Positions 1-27,178 are shown, counted from the stretch's first letter. The stretch: 64,000 bases of DNA from Antedon mediterranea (GCF_964355755.1 NC_092670.1:24352795-24416794); one strand, 5' to 3'. Numbers and translations are program-made. The notes: generated by a model not told the origin, from the letters alone.

Positions 1-3000
1 ATATATGTTTATACATACATTATAAATGAAATATATTAACTACTATTTTAGTAATGCATACACAAGTACAGAATATCAGAAATCAATGAATCATGTGTCT
101 AAATGTGGCATTATTAGGCTAATTTGCTTTGAGAAAAACATTGATGCCATTGGCCTATACAAAAAATCAAGGCAATTAGACAAAATATTTACATAAACAA
201 TTAATACTAATATTGGTAGGCATAAAATAATAGTGTATATAAACTTTCCTTAAATAGTAACAGTATAGGGCCTTACCAATTTACTTAATACATAATATAT
301 GAACTATATTACACAAAAGAAATATAAATGAATTTATAAGGACATGATGATTATCAAAAATAGTCAATATAATTAAATTTTAAACTCATTACCGGCATTA
401 TAAATAATAATTTAAAAAGATGAGAATGCAAGTAAATATCAGATTCATAGTCCTCATTATACACAATGATTTTCTACTATCACATATTAAAATATAAAAC
501 AATCATGTAGCCTTTAATGAGTTTACATGGAGGTCTATTCAAATAAATTTAAATAAAAGGGTTCGTGGAAATTGAAGTTAGGATTCCATCATTTCAACAA
601 CAAAAAATATTCAAAATATCCTGCCAGTCTGCGTTCAAAAACCTGCTTAGTTTTTAATACGAGTACTGCTTTCTATACACATAAATTTGATTTCTGCAAA
701 AAAAAAAAAAACTCTGTAATAATGTACTTTAATTACTGTAATAATCTAGGTATAGATTATGTTGACCGGGCCAGTGAGAGGGCGATCGACTGTACTACCA
801 TAAGTCCTCTAGTGTATACAACTTATTTCTTGTCTACAAAGTGTATAGTAGTATGCAAATAGTACTATTATTAGATTAGGTAGTTGGGAGTACTTTGGAG
901 AGATACATTTATTTATAAAAGAGTACTGTATATATGGAACTATCTGTGTTAGCCGCCTTTGTATTTTTAGATATAATACCAATAGGTACTATGTATTGGG
1001 AAACAATTCAACAGTTATGAATAAAAAAAGTCCTATTTACTCTGTATGTTGGAGGAAATAAGCATAAGAGCAAAGAAAGCCTTGACCACATGGTGTAAGT
1101 CACTATTTTGAATCAGTAGTATGACTTCTTAAGAAGTAATTTAAAAATTATCATTGTATGATCAAAAAGAAATATTATAATATCTAACTTTCTCCATTAT
1201 ATAAATATATTATTTTATCCAAGGGGTTGCAAACACAACTGTTCACATGTCTTGTTAAGTATTGCACCTTTGTCCTGTCTTTATGTTGTCTGTAATGTCA
1301 CTGCACTAACGGGTGACTGGTAAACGAGCTTCGCTCTTACGGTTATCCATCCATATAAGTTGTTCATCTCTTATGTTCAGAAATTGAAATGGTAAATAAA
1401 CTGAAACTGAAACTGTGCTAATGTGGTACAGGTTGACGAGCCAGGAATGATGGTAGTGCCAGTATACCGTGTAATTTAGCCTCAAGGCAATACCATGTAG
1501 CTGGAGTAGCTTGGACAAATACAGTAGAGATTTATGAGACTTGGTGTGTGATGATTCAGTATGATAAATTTGTGCTGTGAAAGACAAAATTGTAGAATTA
1601 GGAAGAAAATATTGTAAAATATAACAAGGAAATTATACTATAGTATAATTAAGGGGTAACCGTATAATACATAATTAATAGTAATAAAGGCAATGGCAAT
1701 TACTTATATTATGTATACATTACAATATTACAAATAAATTCATATATTATTTTATTATAAGGAAATCTGTTTTAGAATGAGAAAAAGCCGTCCCAACCCA
1801 GATTTGAACCCAGCTATCAATAAAGCTATAAAACAAAATAGACCATATTGTAGCCGGACTGGGTAGCGTAGACTTACTTGAGGCCTAGGCATAGTACGAT
1901 TAGCTAGAAGGATACAGGTTAACCCGTACCCATGCATGCCATGCCAACACGCTCGTACCCAAATTTTGGTTTACATATATCCAAAATTTTGGCTTACTTG
2001 TACCCATCATGGGCTGCCTAGTAGTAGTAGTAGTAGTAGCCTAGCCTAAGGCAGCAGGCCCGGCCCTAGCCTACTACAACTTAAGTCTAGGCCTAGCCTA
2101 GTACTAGTAGGCCTCTAGTTAGGCCTAGCCCTAGGCCCTACCTAGTAGTTAAAGATGTATTGTCCCCCTGAACAAAATTTTTTTTTTTTTTAAAGGCCAT
2201 TTTAATGATACATAAAAGTTATTCACTTTGAAAAAAAATTGGATCCAAAAAAAAATTATTTACCTTAGAAAATCGTAATTTAAAGTAAAAAATAGTCAAC
2301 CGGAAGTCGGTTGGCTGGCAGCCAGCTGGCTTCCGGTTTAATTTAACCCTTGACCTGAATTAGCTTATGAATTATGCATATTGTATGATTCTTGTGCGTG
2401 TATGTGACCTCTAGGTCATCAGAAAAAAAATACGACGTGATATGGCGAGACGACGATGTGGGAAAGTTCTGTAGTTTAACAACAACAAAAACAACTCCTA
2501 CTTGAAGAAAAGACTATGGCTAGGCCCTAGCAGATTGGTAAGTAAGAACTGTAGTTTCTATGGTGCAGCTTTGTTAGTTAGTATAGGAAGCCTAGCTAGC
2601 CCATTACAGCTGTACTGGCTATCTAGTGTACTATCCCCTATCTATTGGCTAGGCCTAGAGTAGTAGCTAGTCTAGTAGTAGTAGTAGTACTAGGCCTAGT
2701 TGTAGGCCTGAGTGAGGGTTCACCCTGAGTGAGTAGCAGGCCTAGCTAATACTAATAGATACAACTTGTAAGCCTTATTAATAGTTATTGCCAACCTAGC
2801 TTTAAATAGGATTAGGCCTATAACATTCATCTGTGAGCATGGAGTAAGGAATAAGGTTTTAGCATGGAGGTATAAAAATAAAATATTTTATACCTCCATG
2901 GTTTTATTGTGACTTGTGTGAATTTCGACACCACCAACTCGTCTTATTTTTAGTATAATACTATAATATTAATAATAGTAATTAATAGTCTTTAATTTAT

Positions 3001-3194
3001 CATTATTCATATCACTTTTCATTCATTTTAAAACATTTAATTTTCTTTTCTATGTAGAGTTTGTGATTAAAAAAAATTATACATAAGAGCAGCGAAACTA
3101 AAAAAGCGAAAACTTGTGAATGGCTGCCAAAAATAGAAAATAAGGTCACCACCAGGGCCAGGAGAGATTATGGTGCTTGGTTTTTCCTTCATGA

Positions 3195-4304
3195 TTAATT
3201 AGATTTTAATGCTAATATAAATTTGTGAAAATTGTAACTAGGCCTATACTGTACATCCAATAATGTAATGTTAGGAGTGTAGGTTGGTTTAGGCGGAGTA
3301 GAAGTAGTATCACTTTGAGAACTAGCATTAGGCTGGACTTTGTTTCCAGAAGACATGACTGACTGTGACTGGGGCTTTTGAATGAATGCTTGTTTATGCG
3401 TTAAGGCATAGTCATCAGCCAGTCGAGCAGCTTGACTTAAGGTCTCAGCTTTTTGCTCATCTAGATAAGTCCTCACATCAGGAGTAATACATGATTTAAA
3501 CTCTTCTATCAAAATTAGTTGTCTAAGCCTATCATAATCTTTATTTGTTTGCTTAGATGCACACCAACGATCAAATAACCGTTCTTTGGTTTGTGCTAAT
3601 TCAAGGTGTGTTTGGTTAGTTTGCCGTTGTTTATTTCGGAATTGTTGCCTATAGGCCTCTGGGACTAATTCATACCCCTTTAAGATGAGTTCTTTAACTA
3701 CATCATATGATGAACTTTGCTCAATTGATAAATCAGTATAAATTTCTCTAGCTTTACCAGTTAGTACACTTTGTAAAAGCAAGGTCCAGTGTTCTTTAGG
3801 CCATTTAAGATTTTCGGCAATTTTCTCGAAATGTAAAAAGAATTTATCTACTTCCTTCTCCTGAAAAGGTGGCACTAGTCTAATATGTTTAGTTACATCA
3901 AATTTTGGATTGGAAATAGGTTGACTAATCCCACTAGCTAGCTCTAATTCGCGTAATTTTAATTTAAAATCTCTTTCCTCTCTTTCGAATTCCAATTCCA
4001 TTCTTCGAATTTCAATTTCTTTCATATTTTGTAATTCAATTTCTCTTAATTTAGCATCAATGCTTGAATCAACTTGGGAAGACATAACACTACTATCAAA
4101 AATGTCTTCCTCAACCAAATAAGTTAATAAACGACTCTTAATATCATTCTTTCGCATAGAGGATTCAACGTCCTTTAGACCTAGATGCGTAGCTAGTTTA
4201 AGCAAATCATCTTTTTTCAAACTATTAAATACCTCTTGGGTAGGGTCGGCAAAAAATGTTTCTGGTTCAAAGACCATTGTAACAGTTACTAATTTCACAA
4301 ACAA
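3195..4304 (-). CDS. gag: Gag (capsid/SCAN-like) of the truncated element; lacks the zinc knuckle and reads through into flanking DNA
   Basis: 369-aa ORF almost identical to 15095-16285 up to ...PTYTPN, then an unrelated tail (ITLLDVQ...KSN) encoded by host flank. Confidence 0.88.
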   Translation of the reverse strand: MFVKLVTVTMVFEPETFFADPTQEVFNSLKKDDLLKLATHLGLKDVESSMRKNDIKSRLLTYLVEEDIFDSSVMSSQVDSSIDAKLREIELQNMKEIEIRRMELEFEREERDFKLKLRELELASGISQPISNPKFDVTKHIRLVPPFQEKEVDKFFLHFEKIAENLKWPKEHWTLLLQSVLTGKAREIYTDLSIEQSSSYDVVKELILKGYELVPEAYRQQFRNKQRQTNQTHLELAQTKERLFDRWCASKQTNKDYDRLRQLILIEEFKSCITPDVRTYLDEQKAETLSQAARLADDYALTHKQAFIQKPQSQSVMSSGNKVQPNASSQSDTTSTPPKPTYTPNITLLDVQYRPSYNFHKFILALKSN

Positions 4305-5086
4305 ATGTTTGAAAATAAAACAAATTTAACTAGGTATAAAACTATAAACCTATCGATTTAAGTTAAAGTTAAATTTAAAGTTCTTCCCGGATGACCCCCC
4401 ACTTTCTGTTACATGCAAGGCACAAACAGAAGATAGGCAATACAATGGATAAGTTTTATACTCTAATCTACGTTTTATTCTTCAAACAGAAAAGCAAAAG
4501 ATAACAAAATCAATTAAAATGATTATAAAGATAAAGATTAATTAATAATATAAAATAATTATCAAAGTATAAGATGGTGGTAACACACAATCAAAATACA
4601 TAAAGAAATTCAAGACTTACAAATATAGCTGAGCCCAAGGCTAATATAAAGCTTTACTTCAGTTGTTCAAAACAGTCAAACAGACTTCTAGATACTTCAA
4701 TAGACTTTAACAGCATTTAGTTTAGCTATGTCAGTATTCGTATTAGGACTGATTAAATATGGTTAATGTACCACTATTTATATTCTTATGCAGGATATGT
4801 GGGGTGATCATTATGATCTCATCAAATAACTTAAAGATGATGAAATTGGTTTTAAGATGAAATTCAAATGACATCATCATCTTAGTATGAAGTTGTTGTA
4901 ACAATTTCCTTATATGGAATATCAAGCAAGTGTCTCTGACAACTTGAGTTATGAGCAGTCTCATAGGTACAATTACTAACAACCTGGTTACTGAACTTTG
5001 GTCTAGTCTACAACCAATATAATATATACAGTACAATACTATGGTAAAGTGATAATAATATAATAGTATAAATGTATCTCCTAACA
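3269..5086 (-). mobile_element. One-LTR + gag derivative of the Gmr1-like retrotransposon, with 9-bp terminal inverted repeats and a 4-bp TSD
   Basis: Near-identical reverse complement of 14311-16130. Begins TGTTAGGAG (3269) and ends CTCCTAACA (5086). GTAA flanks both sides (3265-3268, 5087-5090). Confidence 0.92.
4407..5086 (-). repeat. LTR (680 bp) of the truncated element
   Basis: Reverse complement of 14311-14990 with about 6 substitutions seen by eye. PBS at 4385-4401. Confidence 0.93.
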
Positions 5087-7514
5087 GTAATTATTTTAGA
5101 GAAAATGACCAAATAATCTAAGTTAAATATTTTTTGGAATGTGTACTTTACAGTACTTAGTACCGTTATGTTGAAAATTCTTCCAAAGCAATAACGTTCA
5201 AACCAACATTCACACAATTAAACTTTTTATGTACATATTTTAATAAATAATGTCTTTCTTTTAATAGGTATTAACACACTTGAATGAACAATATGAGCAA
5301 GTAGTGGAAAATGGTGAAGAAATCAACACAAAATGTGGTAGCAACATTCACAATATTTATTTGAACGTTTCTTACTATGACACTTTAAAATGGATGAACA
5401 ATCACAGAAGACAAGCTATTGCTGTAATGCCACAATCAACACATCAATTAATAGTTGAAAATAAATTGTCAACAATAATGCAGAAATTCAATGAAATATA
5501 CCAGTAATTAACTCATTTTTTACTGTACTGTACTGTAAATCTTCACACATTAAAATTATGGTGATTTTATCTCATGTACTGTAGTAGTATTTTTTATTTA
5601 TTTAATGCTGTATACAAATGTTATTGCTCGAATTATGAAAACTATACAACATTTTAAAAGCTGGAAAACAACCAACACATTTGCCTAATGCTTTATGATA
5701 GTCATCCAATATTTATCTTGTGTTCCACTACCAAGTCTACTGCCAGTTGCCTTTAAAATGCTGTATGGGTGTAACTTCTGTTCCAGTCTTCATTAGCTTA
5801 AGTCTATAAATTGAAAAACAATGATGTATAAATACAAAAGTCAAATAGAAAAGTTAAATATTTCACAATTTATTGCATACATATAATTATTATTTCTGTA
5901 CATGAATCTGAAGTTTTCAATTTGGGGTACTAATGTACAGTAAGGAATCCCTGAAAAGTGCATCTCCTCCTTAAAAAAGGCCTAGTCTAATTACTAGTGT
6001 TTTCGTTTTGGTTGCTATCAACAACAACAATCTATTCTACCGTCAACTTCTTTGGTACTGTATGCTGATCATTTTCCAAATGTTCGTTTTTTGTCATCAG
6101 TTCGGTGAGTACGATATATAGGACCTAGCTAGGCCTCAAAGTGGGTTCCCGTCTACTTTTCTGACCCGATTATCTGCCTGCCTACAGCTGCTGCTACACT
6201 ACACTACACAGTAGTAAACTACAGTACTAACTAGGCCTAGGCCCTACTAGATAGATTAGTAGAAGTAGGCTTATATTATAGCCCTAGCCTAGATAGCTAA
6301 GCCTATAACTATACGCCAAAAACTATTATAGGAGGATGTGTCATTCATCTAAAATAGAATTCTACTTACCAGCAAATTAACGGCAGAGCTTTTTACATCA
6401 TACGATCAGGGAAACCCCAGCACTTTCTTCTGTTCTTCGCACATGTTTGTTTACGTGGTGAACAGATCGGATCTCCCCTGTTTGGATACTCATTAACATA
6501 TCATGCATATTTATGAGCTGTTAGCTAACCATCGTTATTTTGGAATTTCTGAACTTATGAGTTCGAAAAAATGGTAAACTTATTTTGATTTTTTATAAGC
6601 GAAATCAATATTTTTTCCGGATTTTTTTTCAGCGAAAGTGAATAACTTTATTATAACTACAAAATGGTCTATTCAAAATTTGATTTTTTTCATCTTTATT
6701 TTTCATGTTTTGGGGGACAATACAACTTTAACATCATACATACGCCCTAGAGCCTAGTAGTAGCTACCTACTACTCACTAGCTAGGCCTAGGTAGTAGCA
6801 GTAGTAGTTATTGTAGTAGTATTATTGTATTGTAGTATTAGTTGTAGCTGTCCAGTGATCCTTGGTCACTTGTCTAGATCCCCTAGTAGGCCTAGGCTAG
6901 GCCTAGGCCTAGTACGTAGTTATTCTTCAACAGTCACACAATTCAGATTCTGCCGGCCGCTGATTGCTAGTGAACAGGGGGAGGGAGAGAAAGAGTTAGA
7001 AGAACTGAAATAAGCCGTGACGTATAATAAACATCATACAACATAATAATATAACTAACGAATCCGTATAATATAATAATGTTGTATGTTATAAAGTAAA
7101 GTAAATGCGTTTAATATAATACAATTATATTATAATATAATGTATTTTATTAATAATATAATATTAAATGTTCATAATATAATGCTAAAACCAAATAATA
7201 TAATACAAAAAGTCAATAATTTGTTACATTTTTCACATAATATATTAGAAATAGATATAATATAATGCTAAAACCAAGTAATATAATGCAAAACGTATAA
7301 TTCATTACAATACAATATATAATACAATAAAAAAATGATATAATAATATAATATTTTGAATACTTCAGACAGCTGAGGCTTGCCATAATCTTACTTTAAG
7401 TCTGATTATATTAATCTTCATTTTCCATGTTTTAGGGCACATCTTTAAATTATTTTTAAAACAGCATTATGTTATACAGAATGAATGAATAAATGTTCAT
7501 AACGGTTGATATGT

Positions 7515-8150
7515 AAGAAAGTTCTTGGCATACCTTATAAATCTAATAACGACAGATCACAAGGGCTGAACTTGGGCGTTTTCCATTAGGGATTGATGTA
7601 TACAAGAAATTGTTAGCTTTTTTGCTAAAGGTAATCGGAATGGCTCCAAATCGACTTCCTTATAAATGTTATGCGCTTTTGAAGCGATTTCAGGAAAACG
7701 AAGGTAAACCAAATTGGGTATCAAATATCAAATCAATCCTCAAGCGATACCGGTATGGCTTCGGCTATGCATGGCTTAACCAGGGTGTTGGAAATAAACG
7801 TTTATTTCTTATGTAATTTAAAAAAACGATGTATTCACAGGAGTGGCGGTCACAATCTGACTCACGCAGCAGACTTTTTTATCTCAATATTAAACAGTCA
7901 ATTAAGTTAGAAAAAAACATACAAAAAGTAAAAGTATTTAGGCATAGAAGATTCATTTTGTTGATAAGGACCTCATCACACAACTTAAATGTAAATATTA
8001 GAGTAAATGATAATTTCTTAAATCTATGTCAGATTTAAATGCTTATGTTAATCTGTAAAAGTATTTATTTGTATCGTTAAAAAGGAGAGAGTCAACCTTA
8101 CAGTAATATATTGTGAATCTATGAGCCCGTGGCCTAAAGATAAAATAAAG
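7515..8150 (+). mobile_element. Degenerate 3' fragment of a non-LTR retrotransposon ORF2 (RTEX-like); second copy at about 54978-55620
   Basis: Fragments ELGRFPLGIDVYKKLLAFLLKV...NWVSNIKSILKRY..GFGYAWLNQGV are typical of post-RT LINE C-termini; stops and frameshifts present. Confidence 0.6.
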
Positions 8151-8449
8151 GCAGGCACCATTGCCTGGAATTTAAAAAAAAACCTAGGCCTAACATCTCA
8201 ATAAATGATATAGAATTTATCTTTGTTCTAAATTTACGAAACAATCCATTTTATTAATAAATTCCACTTTGTTCTTTTGCCCATTTATTACAAAATCCTG
8301 CTACATAGTACAGATCTGAAACGTGAAATATATTCGTCTATTTCTTTTTCAGGCTTGGGGAAACCGCAATGGTATCGTTATTGGAATAAATAAAGGAACT
8401 CATAGGTAATAGTATACCTAAAATTAGCTAACAAAGACGAGGATTAGGC

Positions 8450-11059
8450 ACAGAAAACTACAAATACATAAATCATAACATACATTTATTCATCTCATAA
8501 ACAAACAAACCAAGCAAAGAATAAAAAATATTTTTAATGATGAAAGGAACCTCCAACAAGAAACCTCAGCCAGAACAACACAGAAAGAAGCAGAAAGGTT
8601 AAATGAACCCATTATAGGCCAACATACTGTACATTACATTATACATAATCATGGCATAATTATTACATTAGCTTAGTAAAAATTATTATAAATCAATAAA
8701 AGAAAGTTTATATTTCATCTTAAAAATAGCCAACGATGAAGCTGTCAATGCTGTTCCATATTTCAAGAGCAACACAGCATTAAGACTAGTACATTTAAAT
8801 TTTCTTTTCCTTGACTTAAGTCTAGTTTTACCTCTAGTGTTATAATTGTGCTTGTTCGATTCTTTTCCAAAGATAGACACCAACCTAGTAGTTAGATCAT
8901 GAGTGACAGAGTACATTACAGTACCAATTTGATAAGAAATAAAGTCTTGCATTTTAATAAGTCCATGTCTACGGAAGACGGACGATACACTGTCTCTGAA
9001 CTTTGTGAAGGTGATAACACGTTGGAGACGCTTGATTTCATACAAATACGATTCGTACGTGCAACCCCATACAACAATGCCATTCTTGAATATTGGTTCT
9101 ATAAGGGATTTATATATCGAAAGTAAGGCTTTAAGTGGTAGAAAGTGTTTTACTCTATAGTATGCCAATATACTTAGATACTTTTTTTGATACGACGTCA
9201 ATGTGTTCTTTGAAATTAACATGATCGTCTAAATAAACCCCACGAAATTTAGTTTTATTTGCTCTTTTGTAATTCTGTAAATAAAACTTTAACTTGATCT
9301 ATGTCAACTTTTCTTTTTATACTTCAAAATATCATAAAATTGGTTTTATTTACATTTAATGACAGTTTGCTACATTAAAACCATTCATTAATTTTATCAA
9401 TTTCGGTAGCGACCAGAGTATTTAAGTTTTTGTGAGATAAGAAAATATTAGTATCATCAACAAATAAAATAAGGGATAACAGTTTAGAGCAACTAAAGAT
9501 ATCATTGATGTAAAGTATGAATATGAGGGGTCCAAGTATAGACCCTTGGGGCACACCATATTCAATATTAGGAATTGTAGATTTAACATTTAATTATCAA
9601 AGACTGTATATTGGCGTCTTCGGGAGACATAGCTCTTAAACCAATTTAAAGCTGTACCCCTGATACGGTACTAATCAAGTTTCTTTTTGTAAAATGATGT
9701 GATCAATCGTATCGAATGCTTTGCTAATTTCCACAAATATACCGATACCATACTCTCCCTTATCAATGGCATCGAATACCTTATCGATACGTTTGAGAAT
9801 AGCCATGTGAAGCTTTGTTTTTGAAGACCGAATTGAGAAAGGCGAATAATTTTAGTTTTCTGTACATAGTTATATAGCCTATTGTATACAATACGCTCTA
9901 GAATTTTAGATAGCGTGGGAAGCACGGATTTAGGTCTGTAGTTTGAAAATAAATTTTCTCTCTTAATCACCGGCTTTATTTATTGGAACAACCCTCTGGC
10001 TATCTTTGTCATATCAGGTACAATACCCTTTTCTAGCGAAATGTTAAACATGTAACATAACGGAATTGAAAGAGGGTAAATAATATGCTTAATGATCCTG
10101 CTATTTATACCATCCACATCTGCATGCCTCTAACAATTAGGATAATAAAAAGATAGTTTATGTTGCTATTCTGGATATTATTAGCCAGGTTTGCCCCAAT
10201 ATTTGTAAAATAATCAATGAAACCATTAGCAGTGGATTTAGCGTCATCGGTGTCAGCTTTCTTCCTTTTCCCCTGTTAAGAACCTCACCAAGAATATTCC
10301 AAGTCTGCTTAACGTTATTTTTAGCCGCAACGAGAGCACGGGAGTAATATTGGCGTTTACTAATTCTAATTAAATGAGTGAGTTTGTTTTTGTATTTAGT
10401 ATATTTGTGTCTATTGTTATCACATTTTGATAAATTTTGTATATAGACAATTATTAATTATTAATGGACTTATGATCCCATTAGTAATCCAAGGTTTCCG
10501 ATTAACTTGTCGTTTTGAAATAAATTTTGTAGGAATATTATCATCAATAAGTGAAATAAGTTTGGTAATAAGCAAGCTGTAGCCTTCATTGGGATCATTT
10601 TAAGTAAATATATCATTACAACTCTCTAAATTTACCTAGGAAAGAAGATTATTAAGTGTTGTGTCGTTTAAAACTTTTGTCGTTTGTTGAACATTATGTT
10701 TGGTTCGTCTATTTTAATAATGTGTAAAATTGAAAATAGGAAAATGATCAGTGATGTCCGAAATGATTATTCCACTTTTAATAGAATTTGAAGTATCATT
10801 TGTAATAATGTTGTCAAATATGGGTTCTATCTTCGGGCACATAGTTATTACTCGACTTTTTCCCCTTCAGTTTCCGCTTAGCCCTGTAGACTTCGTTGCG
10901 CTTTTTGTAACTACAGAAGTTGACGATGATTCCCCTGGGTTTACTATAGCCAAGCCTCTTTGGTGGACCGAGCCTATGGCTCCGGTCGATATCCTTGGAG
11001 TCTATCTGTACATTTAGGTCAGTGGTGAATATTTTTCTTACCAGTGTGTCCGTGGTTTC
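8450..11059 (-). mobile_element. Decayed CR1-group (Crack/Daphne-like) LINE: RT and part of ORF1; second copy at about 55900-58536
   Basis: NYRP.SVLPTLSKILERIVYNRL, SQFG, GVPQGSILGP (9530-9560) and LFVDDTN motifs. ORF1-like DIDRSHRLG...KPRGIIVNF at about 10860-11050. Multiple frameshifts. Confidence 0.82.
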
Positions 11060-11517
11060 CAGAGGCGGATTTAGGGTGGGGGGCCCTTTTTGTAATATAT
11101 ATATACATATATATTATGTACCCATTTACATACGATTTTATCAAGGATTTTACAGGAAAAGGGGGTACAAATCTACATTAGAAATCGTTAAAATCTTTTT
11201 TTTTTTTAAAGTTGAACAGAGTTCAACTTCAACGTTACGATCGGTAAAACTGACTGACCAATCAAATAGTTCATAAATTACGTCATCATTGTTTGTGACA
11301 ATTCTTATTTTTTACAACGCGACGATGTTTTTTGTGCTCTTTTAAAGTCTGACATACAAAATAACAAGTGTAAGTAAAACTAAATTTTAATATAAAAACA
11401 ATTTAATTTAATGTTGTCTTTATAGTGTAAAGACTAGATTAAGATATCAGCGAAAACTTGTCCTAGGCCGGCTGGGTTGAAGCATCAGAACCCATAACTT
11501 TTTCAATTTTCACACGG
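11060..11517. mobile_element. Left part of a CAGGGGCGGAT-terminated DNA element (hAT-like MITE) inserted in LINE ORF1
   Basis: Left end CAGAGGCGGATTTAGG (11060) and CAGGGGCGGATTTAGGA (58537). Matching right end TCCTAGATCCGCCCCTG ends at 32540. Body shared with 31229-32205 and 59185-59517. Confidence 0.65.
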
Positions 11518-11590: not shown

Positions 11591-13540
11591 GTTTGCAGGG
11601 TTTTAACTTTATAATTTTTAATTAGTTCCCTTTTGGCCTATGTATTACATTAAACCATTCCGCATCTATCAAATATTACTGATTTGGTTGTACAGAAAAA
11701 TAAATATAATATTGTCTCCCAGCCCATGGAAAAAATATATTTAAATTGTTTGAATAATTATTCTATTTTAATGCGACATACTACACAATTGTTATTCATG
11801 TTGACCAAAATTGAATCAAAAACAAAAATATTTACCTGAACAACCTGTAATTTAAAGCACAAAAATAGCCTTAAGTGTCTTTCAGATAATGATTTTTATT
11901 TAAATGTATATTTTGTCTATTTAAGTGAAATCACAATTTAATAAACTTGATTAAAACTACAAAATGGCCTACGCAAAGTCTGATTTTATTAATCTTCATT
12001 TTCCATGTTTTGGGGACAACACATCTTTAAATTTTAAAACAACATTATATTACTCAGAATGAATGAATAAATATTCATAACGGTTAATAGGCCTAACAAT
12101 CTCAATAAATGAAATTTATGAAACAACCGATATTTATTAATAAATTCCACTTTGTACTTTTGCCCATTTTCGACAAGATCCTACTACATAGTATTTAAAA
12201 ACAGATCTGAAACGCGAAATGTATTCATCTATTTCTCTATTTATTCTATTATTTTGTGGAAACCGCAATGGTATCGTTATTGGAATAAAATGAAGGAAAC
12301 TCACTAAGATAGGTAATAGTACACCGTTGGCTAAAAAAATATGAAAATGGATGAGGCAAACTTTCAATAAGAAAGAACTCACCTGAAACCTTCAGCAGGA
12401 CGAAGAAAATAGGTCGACCATGGACATATACATTTATAGGTCCTTGGGTCGATCACGAAATAGCCGGGAGATAACGTCAACCAAGATGACACGAAAAAGA
12501 CTAGATACAGCAGAGAGAACTGAAAGTAAAATCCGGATCAGAACATTCTGGAAACCGGTCTATACCCCAGGAGGGGAGATTATCATTAGTATAGATTTCT
12601 GTACACGTCATAGCAACGTCATAAATCGTCTCTGTCACATAATCACATATAGGCCTATTTCATGTTTGAATTGAATATTGTAAGTTCCCAGTCCCCCATT
12701 CATTGATCTTAGCTCATAGCCAATTTCAAACAATTTTACATTGATTACGGAGAAAACCTTGTATTACTCATTACTTGACCAGTCAACATATCAACGAATC
12801 TGTGATAACTAATCTCATCATACCATTTGATAAAAGTAGAGTAAATGCCAATACTTCGTTACATTATTATAGTAACTACAAAATAGGCTACCAAGCTTCA
12901 TTTATTCATTCAAGAACATTTAATCATTTCGATACATGGCAAATAACAATACATATGATTAAAACATTTTAAAAACTTACTAATATCGGGTATTTCAAGA
13001 AAAACAACATGCAAAATGCCATAAAATACATCAAAAATATTTCAGAAAAAAATTTCTTAAACCCGAATTATAAAATACAAATGTTATCAATAACTTTAAC
13101 TTTACAGTGTTACAAAAGATAAATACGGATTTAGAATTTTGAAGATCGTAATTTTATTCCATATCTGTAACCGTACAACTTACTGCGTTGATGTATTGAT
13201 TCAATAGATTTTATGTAATTCTTTACATCAAACGATAATAAATTGAAGAAAGTGCCTTAATAGTAAATAGTAAACGTTACGTTATTAATAAGAAAAATAA
13301 AGTTAACTAAAGTATAGATTTACCTATACAAAACATGATACATCAATTGTTTTCCTGAATAAACAATTTTTATTTGATTACATGTCATTATTTTGATAAA
13401 TATTAAATCTAACATTGGGATATTGAGAGGTAACTTCTTAGTTTCACTTACACATACAATTTTAACTTGCACGCAATTTACATGTAGACATACACACTGT
13501 GTAAATAAAATGTCTAGTCAATTTACATAACATATACATA

Positions 13541-14310
13541 TCAAATGTCAACTTTTGTCATCTTAATTTCTTGTTGAAAGTTTGGTTTGCGGGAATTGCA
13601 AGTAAACATATGTACGATAGTGTATAGATACGGATTAATGCACGAGTTGATAGGAATTATGAATGATGCCGCCCAAACATATATTTCATCTGGAATGTCC
13701 CACCTTTTCGTCTCTGAACAAATCCCCATCAGTATGACAGGGAACCAGCAACAGAAATCGGTGAAAACTATTATACCTAGTTTCCAAGCCCTTCTTGTTA
13801 GATCCTTTCGTCTTTTTATTTTGTTGAAAGTAGCTCCTGTTCTCTTAACAGAGACGAAAATTGCGACATAACTCGTTGCGATCACGATAAAACCTAATCC
13901 ATTGAATCCAATAAAAATGGCAATAGCATACTCCCAGCCTGGCCATCTACTTCTTGTTAGCGGTAGTGCAAGACAAACACTCTCTTTGCCATAGTAGTTT
14001 TCTCCAAAATACGATAAATTAATAAAGTCTAATCTGTTTACAAGTGGAAGAAAACTGAGAACAACCCAAACTAACCAACTAATACCGATAATAATTTTAC
14101 ATTTTGTACTGTTTAGCCGTTTTGTAGTGAAAGGGTTCACGATGTTAACTGCACGGTTAATGCTCAATATCATCAATGTAGTTATAGAACATTGACCGGA
14201 GAGAGTAGAAATAGCACCGGCAAAGCTACAAAGGAAACTGCTTTTCCAATCCCTTGCAACCTTCCCGTAGCGTCCTCTGTAGGATATATCTGTACTCGCT
14301 ATGATGATCA
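13541..14310 (-). CDS. 3' part of the 7TM exon of LGR copy A (end of TM2 to C-terminus)
   Basis: CSFAGAIS, SINRA (DRY-equivalent), VCLALP, FTDFCCWFP, PINSCINPYLY; highly similar to 38920-39690. Confidence 0.9.
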
Positions 14311-14990
14311 TGTTAGGAGATACATTTATACTATTATATTATTATTACTTTACCATAGTATTGTACTGTATATATTATATTGGTTGTAGACTAGACCAAA
14401 GTTCAGTAACCAGGTTGTTAGTAATTGTACCTATGAGATTGCTCATAACTCAAGTTGTCAGAGACACTTGTTTGATATTCCATATAAGGAAATTGTTACA
14501 ACAACTTCATACTAAGATGATGATGTCATTTGAATTTCATCTTAAAACCAATTTCATCATCTTTAAGTTATTTGATGAGATCATTATGATCACCCCACAT
14601 ATCCTGCATAAGAATACAAATAGTGGTACATTAACCATATTTAATCAGTCCTAATACGAATACTGACATAGCTAAACTAAATGCTGTTAAAGTCTATTGA
14701 AGTATCTAGAAGTCTGTTTGACTGTTTTGAACAACTGAAGTAAAGCTTTATATTAGCCTTGGGCTCAGCTATATTTGTAAGTCTTGAATTTCTTTATGTA
14801 TTTTGATTGTGTGTTACCACCATCTTATACTTTGATAATTATTTTATATTGTTAATTAATCTTTATCTTTATAATCATTTTAATTGATTTTGTTATCTTT
14901 TGCTTTTCTGTTTGAAGAATAAAACGTAGATTAGAGTATATAACTTATCCATTGTATTGCCTATCTTCTGTTTGTGCCTTGCATGTAACA
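14311..14990 (+). repeat. 5' LTR (680 bp)
   Basis: TGTTAGGAGA...GCATGTAACA; differs from the 3' LTR at one position seen by eye (CTTATAC vs CTTACAC). Confidence 0.95.
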
Positions 14991-14995
14991 GAAAG

Positions 14996-15012
14996 TGGGG
15001 GGTCATCCGGGA
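14996..15012 (+). promoter_or_regulatory. Primer-binding site, tRNA-Pro-like
   Basis: TGGGGGGTCATCCGGGA vs canonical tRNA-Pro PBS TGGGGGCTCGTCCGGGA (2 mismatches), 5 nt after the LTR. Confidence 0.75.
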
Positions 15013-15094
15013 AGAACTTTAAATTTAACTTTAACTTAAAAATCGATAGGTTTATAGTTTTATACCTAGTTAAATTTGTTTTATTTTCAAACAT

Positions 15095-16285
15095 TTGTTT
15101 GTGAAATTTGTAACTGTTACAATGGTCTTTGAACCAGAAACATTTTTTGCCGACCCTACCCAAGAGGTATTTAATAGTTTGAAAAAAGATGATTTGCTTA
15201 AACTAGCTACGCACCTAGGTCTAAAGGACGTTGAATCCTCTATGCGAAAGAATGATATTAAGAGTCGTTTATTAACTTATTTGGTTGAGGAAGACATTTT
15301 TGATAGTAGTGTTATGTCTTCCCAAGTTGATTCAAGCATTGATGCTAAATTAAGAGAAATTGAATTACAAAATATGAAAGAAATTGAAATTCGAAGAATG
15401 GAATTGGAATTTGAAAGAGAGGAAAGAGATTTTAAATTAAAATTACGCGAATTAGAGCTAGCTAGTGGAATTAGTCAACCTACTTCCAATCCAAAATTTG
15501 ATGTAACTAAACATATTAGACTAGTGCCACCTTTTCAGGAGAAGGAAGTAGATAAATTCTTTTTACATTTCGAGAAAATTGCCGAAAATCTTAAATGGCC
15601 TAAAGAACACTGGACCTTGCTTTTACAAAGTGTACTAACTGGTAAAGCTAGAGAAATTTATACTGATTTATCAATTGAGCAAAGTTCATCATATGATGTA
15701 GTTAAAGAACTCATCTTAAAGGGGTATGAATTAGTCCCAGAGGCCTATAGGCAACAATTCCGAAATAAACAACGGCAAACTAACCAAACACACCTTGAAT
15801 TAGCACAAACCAAAGAACGGTTATTTGATCGTTGGTGTGCATCTAAGCAAACAAATAAAGATTATGATAGGCTTAGACAACTAATTTTGATAGAAGAGTT
15901 TAAATCATGTATTACTCCTGATGTGAGGACTTATCTAGATGAGCAAAAAGCTGAGACCTTAAGTCAAGCTGCTCGACTGGCTGATGACTATGCCTTAACG
16001 CATAAACAAGCATTCATTCAAAAGCCCCAGTCACAGTCAGTCATGTCTTCTGGAAACAAAGTCCAGCCTAATGCTAGTTCTCAAAGTGATACTACTTCTA
16101 CTCCGCCTAAACTAACCTACACTCCTAACAAATCTGACCAACAATTTCCATCTCCAAGTACTACTTGCAATTATTGCAAAAAGCCAGGGCACATTATGTC
16201 CGAATGTTTTGCCTTAAAACGGAAGGAAGGAAAAAGTAAACCTTCTGGGTTGGTCTTGGTTAAGAAACAGAAAAATGAAATTTAA
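15095..16285 (+). CDS. gag: Gag polyprotein (SCAN-like capsid + CCHC zinc knuckle); likely ATG at 15122
   Basis: LVPPFQEKEVDKFFLHFEK..WP..W, YELVPEAYRQQFR, LRQLILIEEF, AARLADDY; CNYCKKPGHIMSEC. Confidence 0.92.
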   Translation: MFVKFVTVTMVFEPETFFADPTQEVFNSLKKDDLLKLATHLGLKDVESSMRKNDIKSRLLTYLVEEDIFDSSVMSSQVDSSIDAKLREIELQNMKEIEIRRMELEFEREERDFKLKLRELELASGISQPTSNPKFDVTKHIRLVPPFQEKEVDKFFLHFEKIAENLKWPKEHWTLLLQSVLTGKAREIYTDLSIEQSSSYDVVKELILKGYELVPEAYRQQFRNKQRQTNQTHLELAQTKERLFDRWCASKQTNKDYDRLRQLILIEEFKSCITPDVRTYLDEQKAETLSQAARLADDYALTHKQAFIQKPQSQSVMSSGNKVQPNASSQSDTTSTPPKLTYTPNKSDQQFPSPSTTCNYCKKPGHIMSECFALKRKEGKSKPSGLVLVKKQKNEI

Positions 16286-16290
16286 AAAAT

Positions 16291-18507
16291 TTGGTATCGG
16301 ACTCTGTTCTTGATGGGTACTCTCCTTTCATGTCCGATGGTTTTGTGTCCTTAATTGGAGATGATCTAAACCTCAAGCCAGTTAGGATCCTTAGGGATAC
16401 AGGTGCTTCTCAATCCTTGCTTTTAGAAGGTATTTTGCATTTATCTGATAGATCCTCTACTTGGGAAGATGTCTTGTTGCAAGGGATTGAATTAGGGTAT
16501 TTTAACGTACCATTGCACAATATTGTTATTAAGTCCGATTTTATAAACGGACCTGTAGTAGTTGGGGTTCTAAAGGAACTTCCATTTATGGGCGTCACCT
16601 TTGTTTTAGGGAATGATTTAGCTGGGGCTATGGTTAAAGTGGACGAAACCACCCCAGATCCTAGTATGTTCCCTGTGTGTGCTATTACGCATTCTATTAG
16701 CCAGCAAATTGATGAGGTTATTTTAGGGGATACATTCCTTGCCTCTGAGTTTAATTCTCCCTCTGACGATACTTTGTTTACTGGCATTATGCCTCGTGTA
16801 TCTTTGACTAAGGAGAAATTGATTGCTGAGCAGGTTGACGACTCTAATATTTATAAAAATGTCATATCAGAAGATAACTTGACTTCTGCTATATGCACTA
16901 TTTCTGAAGATAACTTGACTTCTGTTTTATGCGCAAATTCTGAAGATAACTTGACTTCTGTTCTAAGCGCTACTGAACTAATTTCTATCACCCCTGCCAC
17001 TAAGGTAGAGAGTGACTTAAACTTAAATGTCCAAAATAATAATGGTGGTAACTATGATCTTAATGCTGAGAGTTGTTTGAGACTTCAACATTCTGAGGTC
17101 CTTGCTAATTTGGATGCTAAGTTTGTTTATTTAACAGAGGATGCTGAAAGGACAGAACTAACCAAATTGGTGCTGGAACATAACCAGTTGTTTCCTGATG
17201 TACCTGGACAAATTGATGCCGTCTACCATGATGTAGATGTTGGAGACGCTAAACCGATTAAACAACATCCATATCGACTAAATCCTTTAAAGGCGAACTA
17301 TCTAAAACAAGAGATTGACTATATGCTACAAAATGATATTATTGAACCAAGTTCTAGTCAGTGGAGTTCACCATGTGTGCTGGTTCCAAAGCCTGATGGT
17401 TCTTACCGATTATGTACAGACTTTCGGAAGGTGAATGCAGTTACAAAGGCAGATTCATACCCATTGCCACGTATTGATGATTGTCTTGACAAATTAGGCA
17501 AAGCTCAATATGTAAGCAAATTTGATCTACTCAAAGGATATTGGCAAGTTCCTCTCACCGAACGTGCAAAAGAGATATCAGCCTTTGTCACCAATGACGG
17601 ACTCTACCAATACAAGCGAATGCCGTTTGGAATGCGAAATGCACCAGCCACATTTCAACGACTCCTGAATAGTGTGATTTCAGACATCGATGGCTGTGAA
17701 GGCTACATAGATGATGTTATTGTCTACAGTGATACTTGGCAAGATCATGTTCAAACAATTAAAACATTTTTCAAGAAACTTTCTGAGATGAAACTAACCG
17801 TTAATTTGGTGAAATGTGAATTCTCCCAAGGAACTGTGGATTTTCTTGGCTATAATGTTGGTCAAGGTCAAGTAAAACCCCTGCAAGCCAAAGCAGAAGT
17901 TATATCACAGTATCCTACTCCAACAACTAAAAAGGAGCTGATGCGCTTTCTTGGAATGGCCGGCTACTATCGACGGTTTTGCAAGAACTTTTCCTTGATT
18001 ACCCAACCGCTTACAGCTTTGTTAAAAAAGAATTCTAAATTTGTGTGGACTGAGGCCTGCAAGCATGCGTTTGATCGAATTAAGGCAATACTCAATTGTT
18101 CCCCGGTTCTTATCGCTCCTGATTTTGAAAATCAATTTCACTTATATGTAGATGCGAGTGATATTGGGGCAGGGGCAGTTTTAATGCAAACTGGTCCGGA
18201 TGGGGTAGATCATCCACTTTGCTATTTCTCTAAAAAATTTGACAAACATCAGTTAAATTATGCAACCATTGAAAAAGAATGTTTGGCATTAATATTGGCA
18301 TTAAATCATTTCAATGTGTATTTATGCGTTACTCGACACCCCATAATTGTACATACAGATAATAACCCATTGGTCTTCATTAATAGAATGAAGAATAAGA
18401 ACCAGCGAGTTCTCCGTTGGAGTCTTGTGCTGCAAGAATATGATCTAATCATTAAGCATATTCGGGGTAAAGAAAATATTCTTGCAGATGCTTTGTCAAG
18501 AATATAA
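16291..18507 (+). CDS. pol: Pol: aspartic protease, reverse transcriptase and RNase H, with no integrase
   Basis: ILRDTGAS protease motif; RLCTDFRKVN, FDLLKGYWQ, MPFGMRNAPATFQR, YIDD; YVDASD, EKECLA, TDNNPL, ADALSR*. No HHCC or DDE region. Confidence 0.92.
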   Translation: MVSDSVLDGYSPFMSDGFVSLIGDDLNLKPVRILRDTGASQSLLLEGILHLSDRSSTWEDVLLQGIELGYFNVPLHNIVIKSDFINGPVVVGVLKELPFMGVTFVLGNDLAGAMVKVDETTPDPSMFPVCAITHSISQQIDEVILGDTFLASEFNSPSDDTLFTGIMPRVSLTKEKLIAEQVDDSNIYKNVISEDNLTSAICTISEDNLTSVLCANSEDNLTSVLSATELISITPATKVESDLNLNVQNNNGGNYDLNAESCLRLQHSEVLANLDAKFVYLTEDAERTELTKLVLEHNQLFPDVPGQIDAVYHDVDVGDAKPIKQHPYRLNPLKANYLKQEIDYMLQNDIIEPSSSQWSSPCVLVPKPDGSYRLCTDFRKVNAVTKADSYPLPRIDDCLDKLGKAQYVSKFDLLKGYWQVPLTERAKEISAFVTNDGLYQYKRMPFGMRNAPATFQRLLNSVISDIDGCEGYIDDVIVYSDTWQDHVQTIKTFFKKLSEMKLTVNLVKCEFSQGTVDFLGYNVGQGQVKPLQAKAEVISQYPTPTTKKELMRFLGMAGYYRRFCKNFSLITQPLTALLKKNSKFVWTEACKHAFDRIKAILNCSPVLIAPDFENQFHLYVDASDIGAGAVLMQTGPDGVDHPLCYFSKKFDKHQLNYATIEKECLALILALNHFNVYLCVTRHPIIVHTDNNPLVFINRMKNKNQRVLRWSLVLQEYDLIIKHIRGKENILADALSRI
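16867..16974 (+). repeat. Three in-frame 36-bp tandem repeats (SEDNLTSxxxxx) at the expected integrase position
   Basis: TCAGAAGATAACTTGACTTCTG / TCTGAAGATAACTTGACTTCTG x2, period 36. Confidence 0.9.
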
Positions 18508-18566
18508 ATACAATGTTTACATATTACTGTAATGTATTAAAAAGTTTGTATCCAAACTTTTTCTTT

Positions 18567-18577
18567 AAGGAGGGGTG
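18567..18577 (+). promoter_or_regulatory. Polypurine tract
   Basis: AAGGAGGGGTG immediately before the 3' LTR. Confidence 0.75.
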
Positions 18578-19257
18578 TGTTAGGAGATACATTTATACTA
18601 TTATATTATTATTACTTTACCATAGTATTGTACTGTATATATTATATTGGTTGTAGACTAGACCAAAGTTCAGTAACCAGGTTGTTAGTAATTGTACCTA
18701 TGAGATTGCTCATAACTCAAGTTGTCAGAGACACTTGTTTGATATTCCATATAAGGAAATTGTTACAACAACTTCATACTAAGATGATGATGTCATTTGA
18801 ATTTCATCTTAAAACCAATTTCATCATCTTTAAGTTATTTGATGAGATCATTATGATCACCCCACATATCCTGCATAAGAATACAAATAGTGGTACATTA
18901 ACCATATTTAATCAGTCCTAATACGAATACTGACATAGCTAAACTAAATGCTGTTAAAGTCTATTGAAGTATCTAGAAGTCTGTTTGACTGTTTTGAACA
19001 ACTGAAGTAAAGCTTTATATTAGCCTTGGGCTCAGCTATATTTGTAAGTCTTGAATTTCTTTATGTATTTTGATTGTGTGTTACCACCATCTTACACTTT
19101 GATAATTATTTTATATTGTTAATTAATCTTTATCTTTATAATCATTTTAATTGATTTTGTTATCTTTTGCTTTTCTGTTTGAAGAATAAAACGTAGATTA
19201 GAGTATATAACTTATCCATTGTATTGCCTATCTTCTGTTTGTGCCTTGCATGTAACA
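18578..19257 (+). repeat. 3' LTR (680 bp)
   Basis: Direct repeat of 14311-14990. Confidence 0.95.
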
Positions 19258-19533
19258 ATCAGATAAACTGCCATCAGCAAGTCAGACACAGCCAGATGAG
19301 TAATAAGCATGGTTTGCACCTTATTAAAATCATTTTTATTGTTGTCCTTGTTATTAAACCTCCGTGATAAAATAACAATTCCATTACCAATGGCAGATGA
19401 AACACCAATAACCAACATCAATACTCTTAACCCTTCTCGTTTTAGTAAGTCTGCACAGGAAGAAAAAGCATCTGTTGGTTCGCAGACATCAATGTCACCC
19501 ACGAGACAACACAGCTTAAACAAATCTGAATAT
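19258..19533 (-). CDS. 5' part of the 7TM exon of LGR copy A (hinge, TM1-TM2)
   Basis: AG acceptor at 19534-19535; YSDLFKLCCL..CEPTDAFSSCADLL...GNGIVI...HLAVSDLLMAVYL. Confidence 0.9.
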
Positions 19534-19681
19534 CTAAGAGAATGAACAAACAAATAACCATAGTTGTAAAGAAATGTTATTTTGTACATCTGACCTGCCT
19601 CATATATTTTTCAGTTGCATAACAGTTGCATTTAACTACTTTTGTACGGATTGAAATCAGCGTAGAAGATGGCATCGAATA

Positions 19682-23172: not shown

Positions 23173-24971
23173 CTATTAATAATATAAACAACCCGTTAAA
23201 AGCACAATGATGTTAACAAGTGAGTCGGCGAGAGATTGCGCAATGAATAATAGTTATATTGTTGGTTGGTAAGTTAATTTTTGCCTAGTACGTTTAGTCG
23301 TTGGTACCATGCACACACATGCGCATAGACGAACGTATCGGTTACAAAGTCAATACATTTATCTTATTTTATTCAAACAAGATCGCTTTCGCCAACAAAT
23401 GTACCAATATCCGGTATTTTTTTAATGTACAATATTTGTATTTCAGTTAAGTTTTAAATGAGTTAAATAATTATTTAATCTATTCCTTTTGTGAATCATT
23501 TTGATAGTTTTGATTTTGCATTATATTTCTTTGAAGAACACAATTATATTTTGAACGCGTTTTCGTTATAAAATAAATAAAAAAAATAATAAAGGTATAA
23601 CAGTTAATTAAATATTTATACTCATGTTTACAAAAACAACTTAATGTTTATTAATTAATATTATTAATTATATGATTGTTATGCAAACTAGTTCTGCCTT
23701 TGATTAAAATACTTCTTAGAAGCTGTACTTTGAAGCAAATTAACTTTGATTCATCTCAAATTGTTTTACCATGGTAAAACGTTTAAAACTTACAAATACA
23801 AAAGGGATGAAGTAGAATAGCAAAATGCACCATATTTTATGGTAGTTATGCTGTTTTTATTTAATAACCTGTTGAAATAAAAACAATGATTTTAAATGAC
23901 AATGTTATAATGGCAATGATATAGTGGAATTAAGATGATGCAATTTTCAAAATGTATCAATGTTACTGGTACATAATAAATAATTTAATTGTACTTATTA
24001 GGATTTTTTTAAAGCATGTTAATATACAAGTTTCTATGCCATGAAACCACAACTTAAATTGTCTTAATATGTATGTGTTTTAACAGTTAGTGTGTCTATT
24101 AAAAGTAAAACAGAAAACTTGTTATTATTAAATGATGCCATGCATTAATTATAAATGATTATGAAATATGTTAATTGGACGTCGAAACAACCAAACATGA
24201 AGTCCTAATAAGGCCAACAAATGGGTAGGTCGGTAGGAAAAGGTGTTTTTTTTTTTTTTTTTTTAGACCAAAAAATGTGTTGCCGGCAAAAAAATAAACA
24301 ATTTACACATGATAAAAAAAATACTTTTAAAAACACTATTTCCGTGTTATATGCTACATTACGCGAGTTAAAATTATTCCAGATGAAAAATATTGAGTTT
24401 CATATTGTTTTATCCATACGTAATTACACTGGCATTATAGATATAACATTAAAATGCAGGCCGTTATGAGCCATATTTCGCCGATTTCTTATCGCGGGGA
24501 AATTTCCCACCATGGAGAGACATCGATTGATCGCAAGGCGCATGCTGGAACGGGTGGATTATCGCTATATAGATAAACAAGTTTCAACAAAAGAGCTTAC
24601 GAAAATCTTAGGTAAATTTTTATTAAATGTATAGGCCTACTTGCTTGGCGATTCCATGCATTTTAAATCATTAAACAAGTTCATAATCATCGTAGTACTC
24701 TGTACAGTAAAAGTATGAGGGTGTTAAAAAATGTGATAACTAATAAAAACGTGTCACAACCACTGTGTAATCAAAGCGTTTATTTAGTTAAAACTTCGAA
24801 CCCCCTAAAATTGATAATCGCGTATTCCGGTTATCACATGATTGAGTCACGGTTGGTTGCACACTTCTTTTTTACACGGCGGAAGTGAAATAAATTCGCC
24901 AATTTGGCAAATAAGACAATATATTTATGTATTTCACCTTATATAAAAGTAATTACGAAAAAGGTACCTAC

Positions 24972-25043
24972 AGTATTTGTAATGACGTCAAATCATCAAA
25001 CGTCTTGGCCGTCAATGTACGTATTTGGTTATTGTTCAAATAC
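24972..25043 (-). CDS. LRR exon, copy A (YLNNNQIRTLTAKTFDDLTSLQIL)
   Basis: 72 bp, AG/GT, phase 2-2. Confidence 0.85.
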
Positions 25044-25112
25044 CTTCAAAAAAATTAATTGTTTAAAAAAACATAATGGAAATTTAATCATCGGCATATT
25101 ATGGCTTTAGGA

Positions 25113-25735
25113 TTTTTAGTTGCGTGGACGCGACTCTATAGTTCACTATGTTGGTCGGTCGGTCTGTCGGTCTGTCGGTATGTCTGTCGGTCCGGTATCA
25201 CTATGCGTTTTATTGCTTTCTGACCTTATCTTGATATCAGTTTAATCTAGCTAAGTCAATTTTTCACAGTATATTCCTTATGGCCAGGAATCGATGTGGT
25301 TATGTTTTCACGGTGCGCAATAAAAAATTACGCGGTCTACGCACGATTTAACGAAATCACGTTTGTAATCATATCTTCACAACCATGAATCACAATTAAA
25401 TCAAATTTGGTACTCATAAATTTCAGGGCATAAATCATCATATGACTGCTCGCCGGCTTTTAAAAATTGTCTCCTATCTTTTAACACTAGCCGGTCTGAA
25501 AATAATATTATTTTTGTTATTTTGTGATGTTATTAATAAACCAATTTTGATGATTTTCAATAGGCATGGTCTGAAAGTACTATCTACACCCAAAAATTCA
25601 GAACGATAACTTGAAAACAGTAGACGCTATCGTGCTAACAAACAAAAATACATACACACATACAAACAAAGTGAATACTATACTATAACAAACACACGCG
25701 ATCGATTACATATACCTCCTTGGCGGAGGTAAAAA
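25113..25735. mobile_element. Helentron/DINE-like intronic repeats
   Basis: TTTTTAGTTGCGTGGACGCGACTCTATA start, (GTCG/GTCT)n microsatellite, terminal hairpin ACCTCCTTGGCGGAGGT at about 25714-25730. Confidence 0.55.
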
Positions 25736-25743
25736 ATACTCAC

Positions 25744-25815
25744 AGTTCATTCAAAGATGTCAAACCAGAAAAAACACAGGCTGGTAATGAACTAATTTGG
25801 TTGTGATTCAAACCC
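25744..25815 (-). CDS. LRR exon, copy A (GLNHNQISSLPACVFSGLTSLNEL)
   Basis: 72 bp, AG/GT, phase 2-2. Confidence 0.85.
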
Positions 25816-26701
25816 CTTCAAAAATAAATTTAATACACGGTAATATAACAATTGAAATTAAATAAATAGATATTCAATATTTGTATTAAAAGAAATGGCC
25901 CATGTTTAAATACGATAAACAAACGTACAATCCTTTCAATGCTCTCAAATCATCATTGCTATTAATATAGGAAAATAAATGAAAACATCGTCTGGTAATA
26001 TACTAATCTAGGTTAGTTTGAGTACAGATACCGTATTTATATGAATAGATTTCCCGCTGTGTTTTGTTTCGCCCCATAGGACATCATTTGGTTAAACTCC
26101 CTTCGAATAAACGCTAAAAACCCCGGGTGTTTTTATTTCCTCTTCCACCCCTGAAAAAACTTTTCCGAAAAAATATTCGAATAAATACGGTACCTCCGAA
26201 GTAAAGACAAAAATCGAAACGCTGAATGGTGAATAACAACATAAAAACAGACAATAGAAACTTGAGGCAAGTATGAATTTTAAAAAAAATAAGAAAAACC
26301 ATTGGCTGGTAATGTACTAATTTCGTTTAAGCCAAATATCTCCAAAGTAAACAGAATACGCAATACACATGTGGAATTGTCTATGTTGACCACTTTTCAA
26401 TTAGCATTATAACAACAAAGTAAATGCAATTACCGTATATAAAAAATAAACAAATTTCTTCTAGAGATATCAGCCCAGAGAAAATAGTGGCTGGTAATTT
26501 ACTAATTTCGTAGGAAGACAAATTCCTTCAAAGTAAACACAATGCACATGTGGAATTGTCTATGTTGACCACTTTTCAATTAGCATTATAACAACAAATT
26601 AAATGCAATTATATAAAAAAAACACGTTTCTTCTAGAGATATCAGCCCAGAAAATTAACAACAAAAAAACGTAATTAAGACAATTAATACTTAACACTTA
26701 C

Positions 26702-26773
26702 AGTTTTTCCAGAGATGTCAAACCAGAAAACAATTTGGCTGGTAATGCGCTAATATTGTTCAAGGACAAATTC
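26702..26773 (-). CDS. LRR exon, copy A (NLSLNNISALPAKLFSGLTSLEKL)
   Basis: 72 bp, AG/GT, phase 2-2. Confidence 0.85.
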
Positions 26774-27178
26774 CTTCAAAGTTAACACAATGCACAGTAA
26801 ACATGTGAAATTGAATATGTTGGGTACTTTTCAGTCAATTTAACAACAATTTTAGGCCTACTCTGATCTTTGTCAAATATGTCAAACCAGAAACAAAAAC
26901 CTGCTTACATAATTTCGCGGTTTTATAATATTTATGATAACTTTGGTACTTTATTTTCAGGAAAGGTAAATAAATTTATAAATTGTCCTATTTAAGATGA
27001 TGACTTTTTTTAATGCTTTAAAAAAAAAAATCTGTTTTCCAATATGTCGCTGTACATTGATATCAATATCCTAACATTTGTGTCAGTTTTTAAATGTGAA
27101 TACTGTAAGTCAAAGACTGGTGGACAACAACTTAAAACAGGCAATAGAGATTTGAGACAAGTATAGAAATAAAAATAC

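Follow-up and report, generated by a model that had tools for sequence, protein, structure and literature searches.

The window analysed here is a 64-kb stretch (64,000 nucleotides) of the Antedon mediterranea genome (GCF_964355755.1 NC_092670.1:24352795-24416794), and it carries two copies of one LTR retrotransposon family, with no third (Table 1). Copy A lies inside a Kolobok-like DNA transposon and is the only copy of the one-LTR type within the 64 kb, and copy B, which has two LTRs, breaks up an exon of a GPCR gene.

Table 1. Features of the two retrotransposon copies and of the host element (positions are those of the window).
Feature	Position	Strand	Remarks
Host Kolobok-like element	2153-6727	+	TTAA at 2149-2152 and 6728-6731; AG...CT ends
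Copy A, one-LTR piece of a putative Gmr1-type LTR retrotransposon	3269-5086	-	1818 bp; 5' LTR, primer-binding site and gag up to an internal CA
Lone LTR of copy A	4407-5086	-	680 bp, TG...CA; 7 differences from the 5' LTR of copy B
Primer-binding-site-like sequence of copy A	4384-4401	-	starts 5 bases past the LTR end
Open frame in copy A	3195-4277	-	336 gag residues, then 24 residues from host DNA up to the stop
LTR-end look-alike forming the new end of copy A, CTCCTAACA	3269-3277	-	inverse of the first 9 LTR bases
Target-site duplication GTAA, left	3265-3268	+	empty site carries one GTAA
Target-site duplication GTAA, right	5087-5090	+	empty site carries one GTAA
Copy B, two-LTR element of putative Gmr1 type	14311-19257	+	gag, protease, RT and RNase H; without integrase
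Identical look-alike in copy B gag	16122-16130	+	codons 334-337; variable linker ahead of the zinc knuckle

Over its full length, copy A aligns at 99.2% identity to 14311-16130, the initial 1820 bases of copy B; the two differ by 13 substitutions and a single 2-bp gap. The alignment bears out the first-pass annotation, which had described an 1818-bp piece halting at a 9-base site in gag. The primer-binding-site-like sequence, which we take to be of the tRNA-Pro type, is similar to the site of the relatives L002 and L004. The gag part keeps its SCAN/capsid domain (PF02023, E 1.6e-13 in Pfam) and has lost the zinc knuckle, as seen from the open frame and Pfam. Copy A is devoid of a 3' LTR and of a polypurine tract, and no transposase or integrase was found inside it with Pfam.

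Judged by sequence, copies A and B are Gmr1-like Ty3/Gypsy LTR retrotransposons. In bioRxiv 10.1101/2025.03.03.638093, Gmr1-like elements are described as having a SCAN-type capsid and the order protease-integrase-RT-RNase H; all three close whole relatives that were scanned carry SCAN, integrase, RT and RNase H in that order, and RT identity with relatives is 61-71% for most of the matches listed. Marine invertebrates are among the sources of the named pol relatives. As in Gmr1-like elements, SCAN lies in gag, the LTRs are of the TG..CA form, a primer site is present, the duplication is 4 bp long and, in copy B, there is a polypurine tract. Unlike these elements, copy A carries a single LTR and breaks off within gag, ahead of the position of the integrase.

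Copy B has TG..CA LTRs, a primer site, a polypurine tract and a short duplication, and the first-pass annotation had called it the full element. It is not full: Pfam found RT and RNase H in it but no integrase, and the alignment of its pol with a whole relative covers both sides of the missing domain, at residues 442-663 and 1104-1581, whereas the integrase domains of that relative (713-1063) have no counterpart. Nor was an integrase of this family found elsewhere within the 64-kb window. Moreover, gag and pol of copy B are in different frames, compared with a single polyprotein in the three relatives scanned, and positions 16870-16970 hold a 36-bp tandem repeat. Only one base in 680 separates its two LTRs, so copy B most likely inserted recently with an integrase from elsewhere. 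The insertion made a 4-bp duplication, ATCA, of which a single ATCA is present in an uninterrupted paralogous GPCR exon. Non-autonomous elements of the TRIM/LARD type keep two LTRs, a primer site and a polypurine tract for copying in trans; copy B has all of these, in contrast to copy A with neither 3' LTR nor polypurine tract.

To examine the surroundings of copy A, contigs of four public runs (X1, X5, X6 and X7) were mapped onto positions 1500-7500 of the window. X1 may be the sample from which the window itself derives, X6 and X7 come from a single study of a second organism (organism B), and X5 is guessed to be RNA. The contig evidence comprises the 32 of 12,299 pieces, 15 of 198 joints and 24 of 1,998 loose ends that were listed, and contigs lose rare variants. 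The host element proved to be multi-copy: in each of the four runs, numerous distinct flanks precede 2149 and follow 6731. Its inverted ends are 16 bp long and match at 15 of 16 positions; with its TTAA duplication and RR..YY termini, it shows the features by which the Kolobok superfamily is recognised in PMC9587614. The TTAA duplication and AG..CT ends thus uphold its earlier description as Kolobok-like. No match to a DDE transposase above the Pfam cut-off was obtained in the two short host frames scanned, and the element may be non-autonomous. It also appears to be spliced: X5 contains GT..AG joints at 2536-5267 and 3171-5267, and the site of copy A is therefore likely intronic in the host, with copy A in antisense orientation.

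The same contigs reveal the empty site. In three of the four runs, contigs connect 3264 directly to 5087 and omit 1822 bases, that is, the element and one GTAA; the shorter side of this joint is 195 letters long in X1, 118 in X6 and only 28 in X7, and the joint was not seen in X5. As a single GTAA is found at the empty site, GTAA is a genuine 4-bp duplication. The first-pass annotation had proposed this duplication with the empty site as its check, and had pointed out that its length equals that of the copy B duplication; both points stand, ATCA being confirmed by the paralogous GPCR exon.

The insertion is also young. Contigs of X1 show 0 differences from copy A over 707 and 352 bases, and a contig of X5, 2 differences over 1028 bases. 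One X5 contig terminates precisely at 5086. In the contig variant table, the alternative letter is that of copy B at 6 of the 17 in-element positions checked; at 3916, 3930 and 3987, copy B has the letter of organism B, and copy A that of X1 and X5. This pattern indicates that much of the difference between A and B is a difference between subfamilies, and that copy A was not derived from copy B.

We then turn to the end that is specific to copy A. On the plus strand of the window, the truncated end reads TGTTAGGAG, i.e. CTCCTAACA of gag, and it is an inverse match to the LTR start at 9 of 9 bases. Between the true 3' LTR end (..GCATGTAACA) and the LTR start, the match extends over 5 bases only; hence the look-alike does fit better than the natural end, as had been noted at first sight. 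Among the 271 CA sites scored on the sense strand of the element, 16130 alone matches the left end over 9 bases. The five bases TAACA are common to 16126-16130 and the true 3' LTR tip (19253-19257), and the look-alike agrees at bases 6-9 with the left end, not with the 3' LTR end. The internal region of copy B has only two TAACA sites, 16130 and 17136. In simulations, a match of at least 9 bases to one end or the other occurred in 50 of 2000 internal regions (2.5%), and an extension to 9 bases in 51 of 11,036 TAACA sites (0.46%). The new end terminates in CA and fits the TGTNR terminal pattern of Gypsy elements given in PMC2836005. The break in copy A is tied to the look-alike in gag.

The look-alike itself is probably a chance sequence, because it falls where gag is least conserved. 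Among the 120 relatives returned of 2017 matches, mean identity over gag residues 321-340 is 0.21, and only 3 of the 120 have [TSPA]PN at any position of the linker. Conservation of the look-alike across the family was followed up on proteins, in which the linker is not conserved. In a metagenome scan, 39 distant loci were obtained, most of them at 30-40% identity, and of the 14 loci of at least 2500 bases none had an LTR pair usable for testing the mimic. The relative L004 is a circular assembly whose ends are TGTTA and TAACA-like. In organism B, a branch is seen at 3276, where gag contigs of X6 and X7 begin; this point lies 7 bases inward from the new end of copy A.

We consider it likely that a short DNA was formed before insertion and that integrase took the gag look-alike as its second end. 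That integrase used an internal att-like site, as suggested in the first-pass annotation, is the best explanation in view of the real duplication, the 9-base match, the youth of the copy and the precedent of HTLV-1. A possible course of events can be drawn from the standard model of LTR replication. After the second strand transfer, the left DNA end would be a finished duplex, with the right LTR still not double-stranded. A stall in plus-strand synthesis, or a DNA break, at the gag CA would then leave as sole second end one that resembles the left LTR tip. Integrase from an integrase-bearing family member elsewhere in the genome might join both ends, 4 bp apart, into the Kolobok-like element. 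A template jump of the reverse transcriptase at the common TAACA could lead to the same end by another route.

Alternatively, a full-length element might have inserted at GTAA, after which a deletion from the TAACA in gag to the TAACA at the 3' LTR tip, across a 5-bp microhomology, would have removed pol and the 3' LTR and kept both GTAA. This we regard as unlikely. The deletion would profit from the 5-base identity between the two sites, the look-alike being one of only two internal TAACA sites in copy B, and would explain the duplication without unusual behaviour of integrase; internal losses do occur in the family, as copy B shows. The earlier argument that random truncation would not restore a target-site duplication overlooks precisely this case, in which the duplication is preserved. 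Nevertheless, the deletion leaves unexplained the four extra bases that match the left end, which only 0.46% of simulated TAACA sites possess, and it would require that several kilobases, up to precisely the LTR tip, were lost from an insertion of very recent date (0 differences in X1). Moreover, no joint from 3268 to the LTR end is present among the 15 of 198 joints listed, which is a weak negative.

An origin before insertion is favored because bases 6-9 match the left end, which a microhomology deletion does not explain, because the duplication is as long as the ATCA of copy B, for which a paralog provides confirmation, and because the youth of copy A leaves little time for a later multi-kb deletion. 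Several points weigh against it. The true 3' LTR end also carries TAACA, so that a later deletion would give an identical sequence. The look-alike is a 2.5% event that was noticed after the fact. The natural ends of the family agree over 5 bases only, and bases 6-9 may therefore not matter to integrase. There is one instance only, and the HTLV-1 cases lost the opposite side (the 5' LTR). Finally, truncated new EVD insertions in Arabidopsis kept two LTRs in every case, according to PMC10462705.

It is very improbable that copy A reflects an assembly artefact, or a one-ended insertion repaired by host enzymes with a chance 4-bp repeat. Among the 32 of 12,299 pieces listed, no contig spans either filled junction by 31 letters, so that the filled allele rests solely on the window assembly, and the empty-site contig of X1 runs unbroken across the site. 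However, the 4-bp duplication is exact relative to independent empty sites, and both ends fall at TG/CA. Two random 4-mers of host composition would agree by chance with p ~0.006. Copy A differs from copy B by 13 substitutions, hence it is not a collapsed copy B. Rare variants are moreover dropped from contigs, and this is one copy among many of the host element.

Copy A might also be a non-autonomous unit that propagates itself, its 9-bp inverted ends serving for renewed movement by integrase or by a Ginger-like transposase. Like Ginger1 and Ginger2, it has TGTNR termini (TGTTA at both ends), inverted ends, in its case perfect over 9 bp, and a 4-bp duplication. In PMC2836005, the inverted repeats measure 40-270 bp in Ginger1 and 45-297 bp in Ginger2, i.e. 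about 40-300 bp compared with 9 bp here, and excision by integrase is described as only theoretical. Ginger elements encode an integrase-like transposase and form families, whereas copy A contains neither transposase nor integrase, and is the one known copy, with no other of its kind in the 64 kb. The look-alike lies in the least conserved stretch of gag (0.21; 3 of the 120 returned relatives). In X1, depth is about 120-190 over the LTR and about 70 over gag, which fits mostly two-LTR copies, although depth is not copy number. Self-propagation is thus hardly credible. The TIR-transposon architecture attributed to copy A is superficial: its 9 bp compare with 40-270 bp in Ginger (PMC2836005), and transposase, 3' LTR and polypurine tract are all missing.

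Extremely improbable as well is a derived element with a 1.8-kb "LTR" (LTR plus gag), formed by a minus-strand start or jump at the gag site, of which copy A would be the solo LTR: it would give this exact anatomy with the duplication kept, and TAACA is shared with the U5 end beside the primer site, but it needs two rare steps, no primer-site-like TGG occurs within 10 bases past the gag CA, and no long-LTR element is present within the window.

Integration of a short DNA through the gag look-alike has a parallel in HTLV-1. In some leukaemias, 6-bp repeats are joined to internal sequence on one side and to a single remaining LTR on the other, and the authors' reading is that integrase recognises an internal sequence (PMC6950816, a review citing Miyazaki et al. 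2007). Like copy A, these defective proviruses, which arose before integration, have one LTR, an internal end and repeats of integrase length on both sides. Copy A differs in being a germline retrotransposon that lost its 3' part, whereas the proviruses described there lost the 5' LTR. In copy A, moreover, the internal end reproduces the tip of the opposite LTR perfectly over 9 bases; for HTLV-1, the comparison draws on the description in that review. One-LTR proviruses with an internal joint and an integrase-length repeat having already been reported (PMC6950816), copy A cannot be termed undescribed in kind, as had been suggested for the case that it recurs in the genome. The literature searched, most subscription journals lying outside its coverage, contained no report of a retrotransposon copy that has one LTR and ends at an internal mimic of the LTR end. 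A precedent in HERV-K was not borne out by the available parts of PMC12057132 and PMC4422153. The parts available of PMC2857682, PMC11042837 and bioRxiv 2025.01.02.631056 held nothing specific to a case like that of copy A. The truncated EVD insertions (PMC10462705) are short derivatives with duplications, like copy A, but both LTRs are kept, and copy B is of their kind.

The product is probably a one-off dead end rather than a new kind of element, because its 3' LTR and polypurine tract are missing. An RNA without these two parts is not copied into new integrable DNA. Further copies would therefore arise only through fresh errors of the parent family or through carriage in the host DNA transposon. 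It is rather doubtful that the gag look-alike serves as a standing second end, by which integrase would repeatedly insert a 1.8-kb one-LTR unit with inverted TGTTAGGAG ends and different duplications. If true, it would be a living example of an LTR retrotransposon gaining inverted ends in one step, and an alternative to the route by two opposed LTRs proposed for Ginger1. Integrase precedes RT in Gmr1, so a false end of this kind farther downstream would produce an inverted-end unit that bears integrase and lacks RT. A single insertion is a curiosity, and its value would grow only with recurrence.

To conclude, copy A is a clean natural record, with its empty site, of a second end that mimics the opposite LTR tip from within the element. 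It hints at how short a terminal sequence may suffice for a Gypsy-type integrase, and cautions that a target duplication need not imply a full-length or two-LTR parent. Copy A also offers a testable route to elements with inverted ends, a step called unclear in PMC2836005.

The entire integrase domain is missing from the two-LTR Gmr1-type element (copy B), whose gag and pol are in different frames; a tandem repeat of 36 bp occupies 16870-16970. Copy B was most likely mobilised in trans. It lies within a 7-transmembrane exon, splitting one member of a tandem pair of GPCR paralogues; the other carries no such interruption. Leucine-rich-repeat-like peptides are encoded by short repeated exons nearby (at ~24956-28641 and ~42513-47044), which suggests LRR-GPCR genes.

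Features discussed and their positions in the window
Feature	Position	Remark
Tandem paralogous GPCR loci (two)	13517-19681; 38896-40105	
Gmr1-type two-LTR element (copy B)	14311-19257	Young; LTR pair differing at 1/680 bases
Kolobok-like element	2153-6727	Multi-copy

The Kolobok-like element, host of the truncated one-LTR relative (copy A), is itself nested in another repeat (joint 2118-6728, sequencing run X1) and contains joints resembling splicing (run X5); no transposase was recognisable in the two frames scanned. Elsewhere, two 3.7-kb copies of 96% identity (7403-11113 and 54867-58591) belong to a non-LTR-type element that is degraded and retains a fragment of RT, and 59732-64000 is a tandem array of a ~1.4-kb unit (identity 91-94%).

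In both runs from organism B, gag contigs start at 3276, 7 bases inside the new end of copy A, hinting that the look-alike of the LTR start found there varies in sequence in this organism. The spacer between the LTR CA and the primer site is 5 bases in the window's Gmr1-type copies (14991-14995 in copy B, 4402-4406 in copy A), in contrast to 2 bases in L002 and L004, two metagenomic relatives. A right end with a longer overhang might be a poorer integrase substrate.
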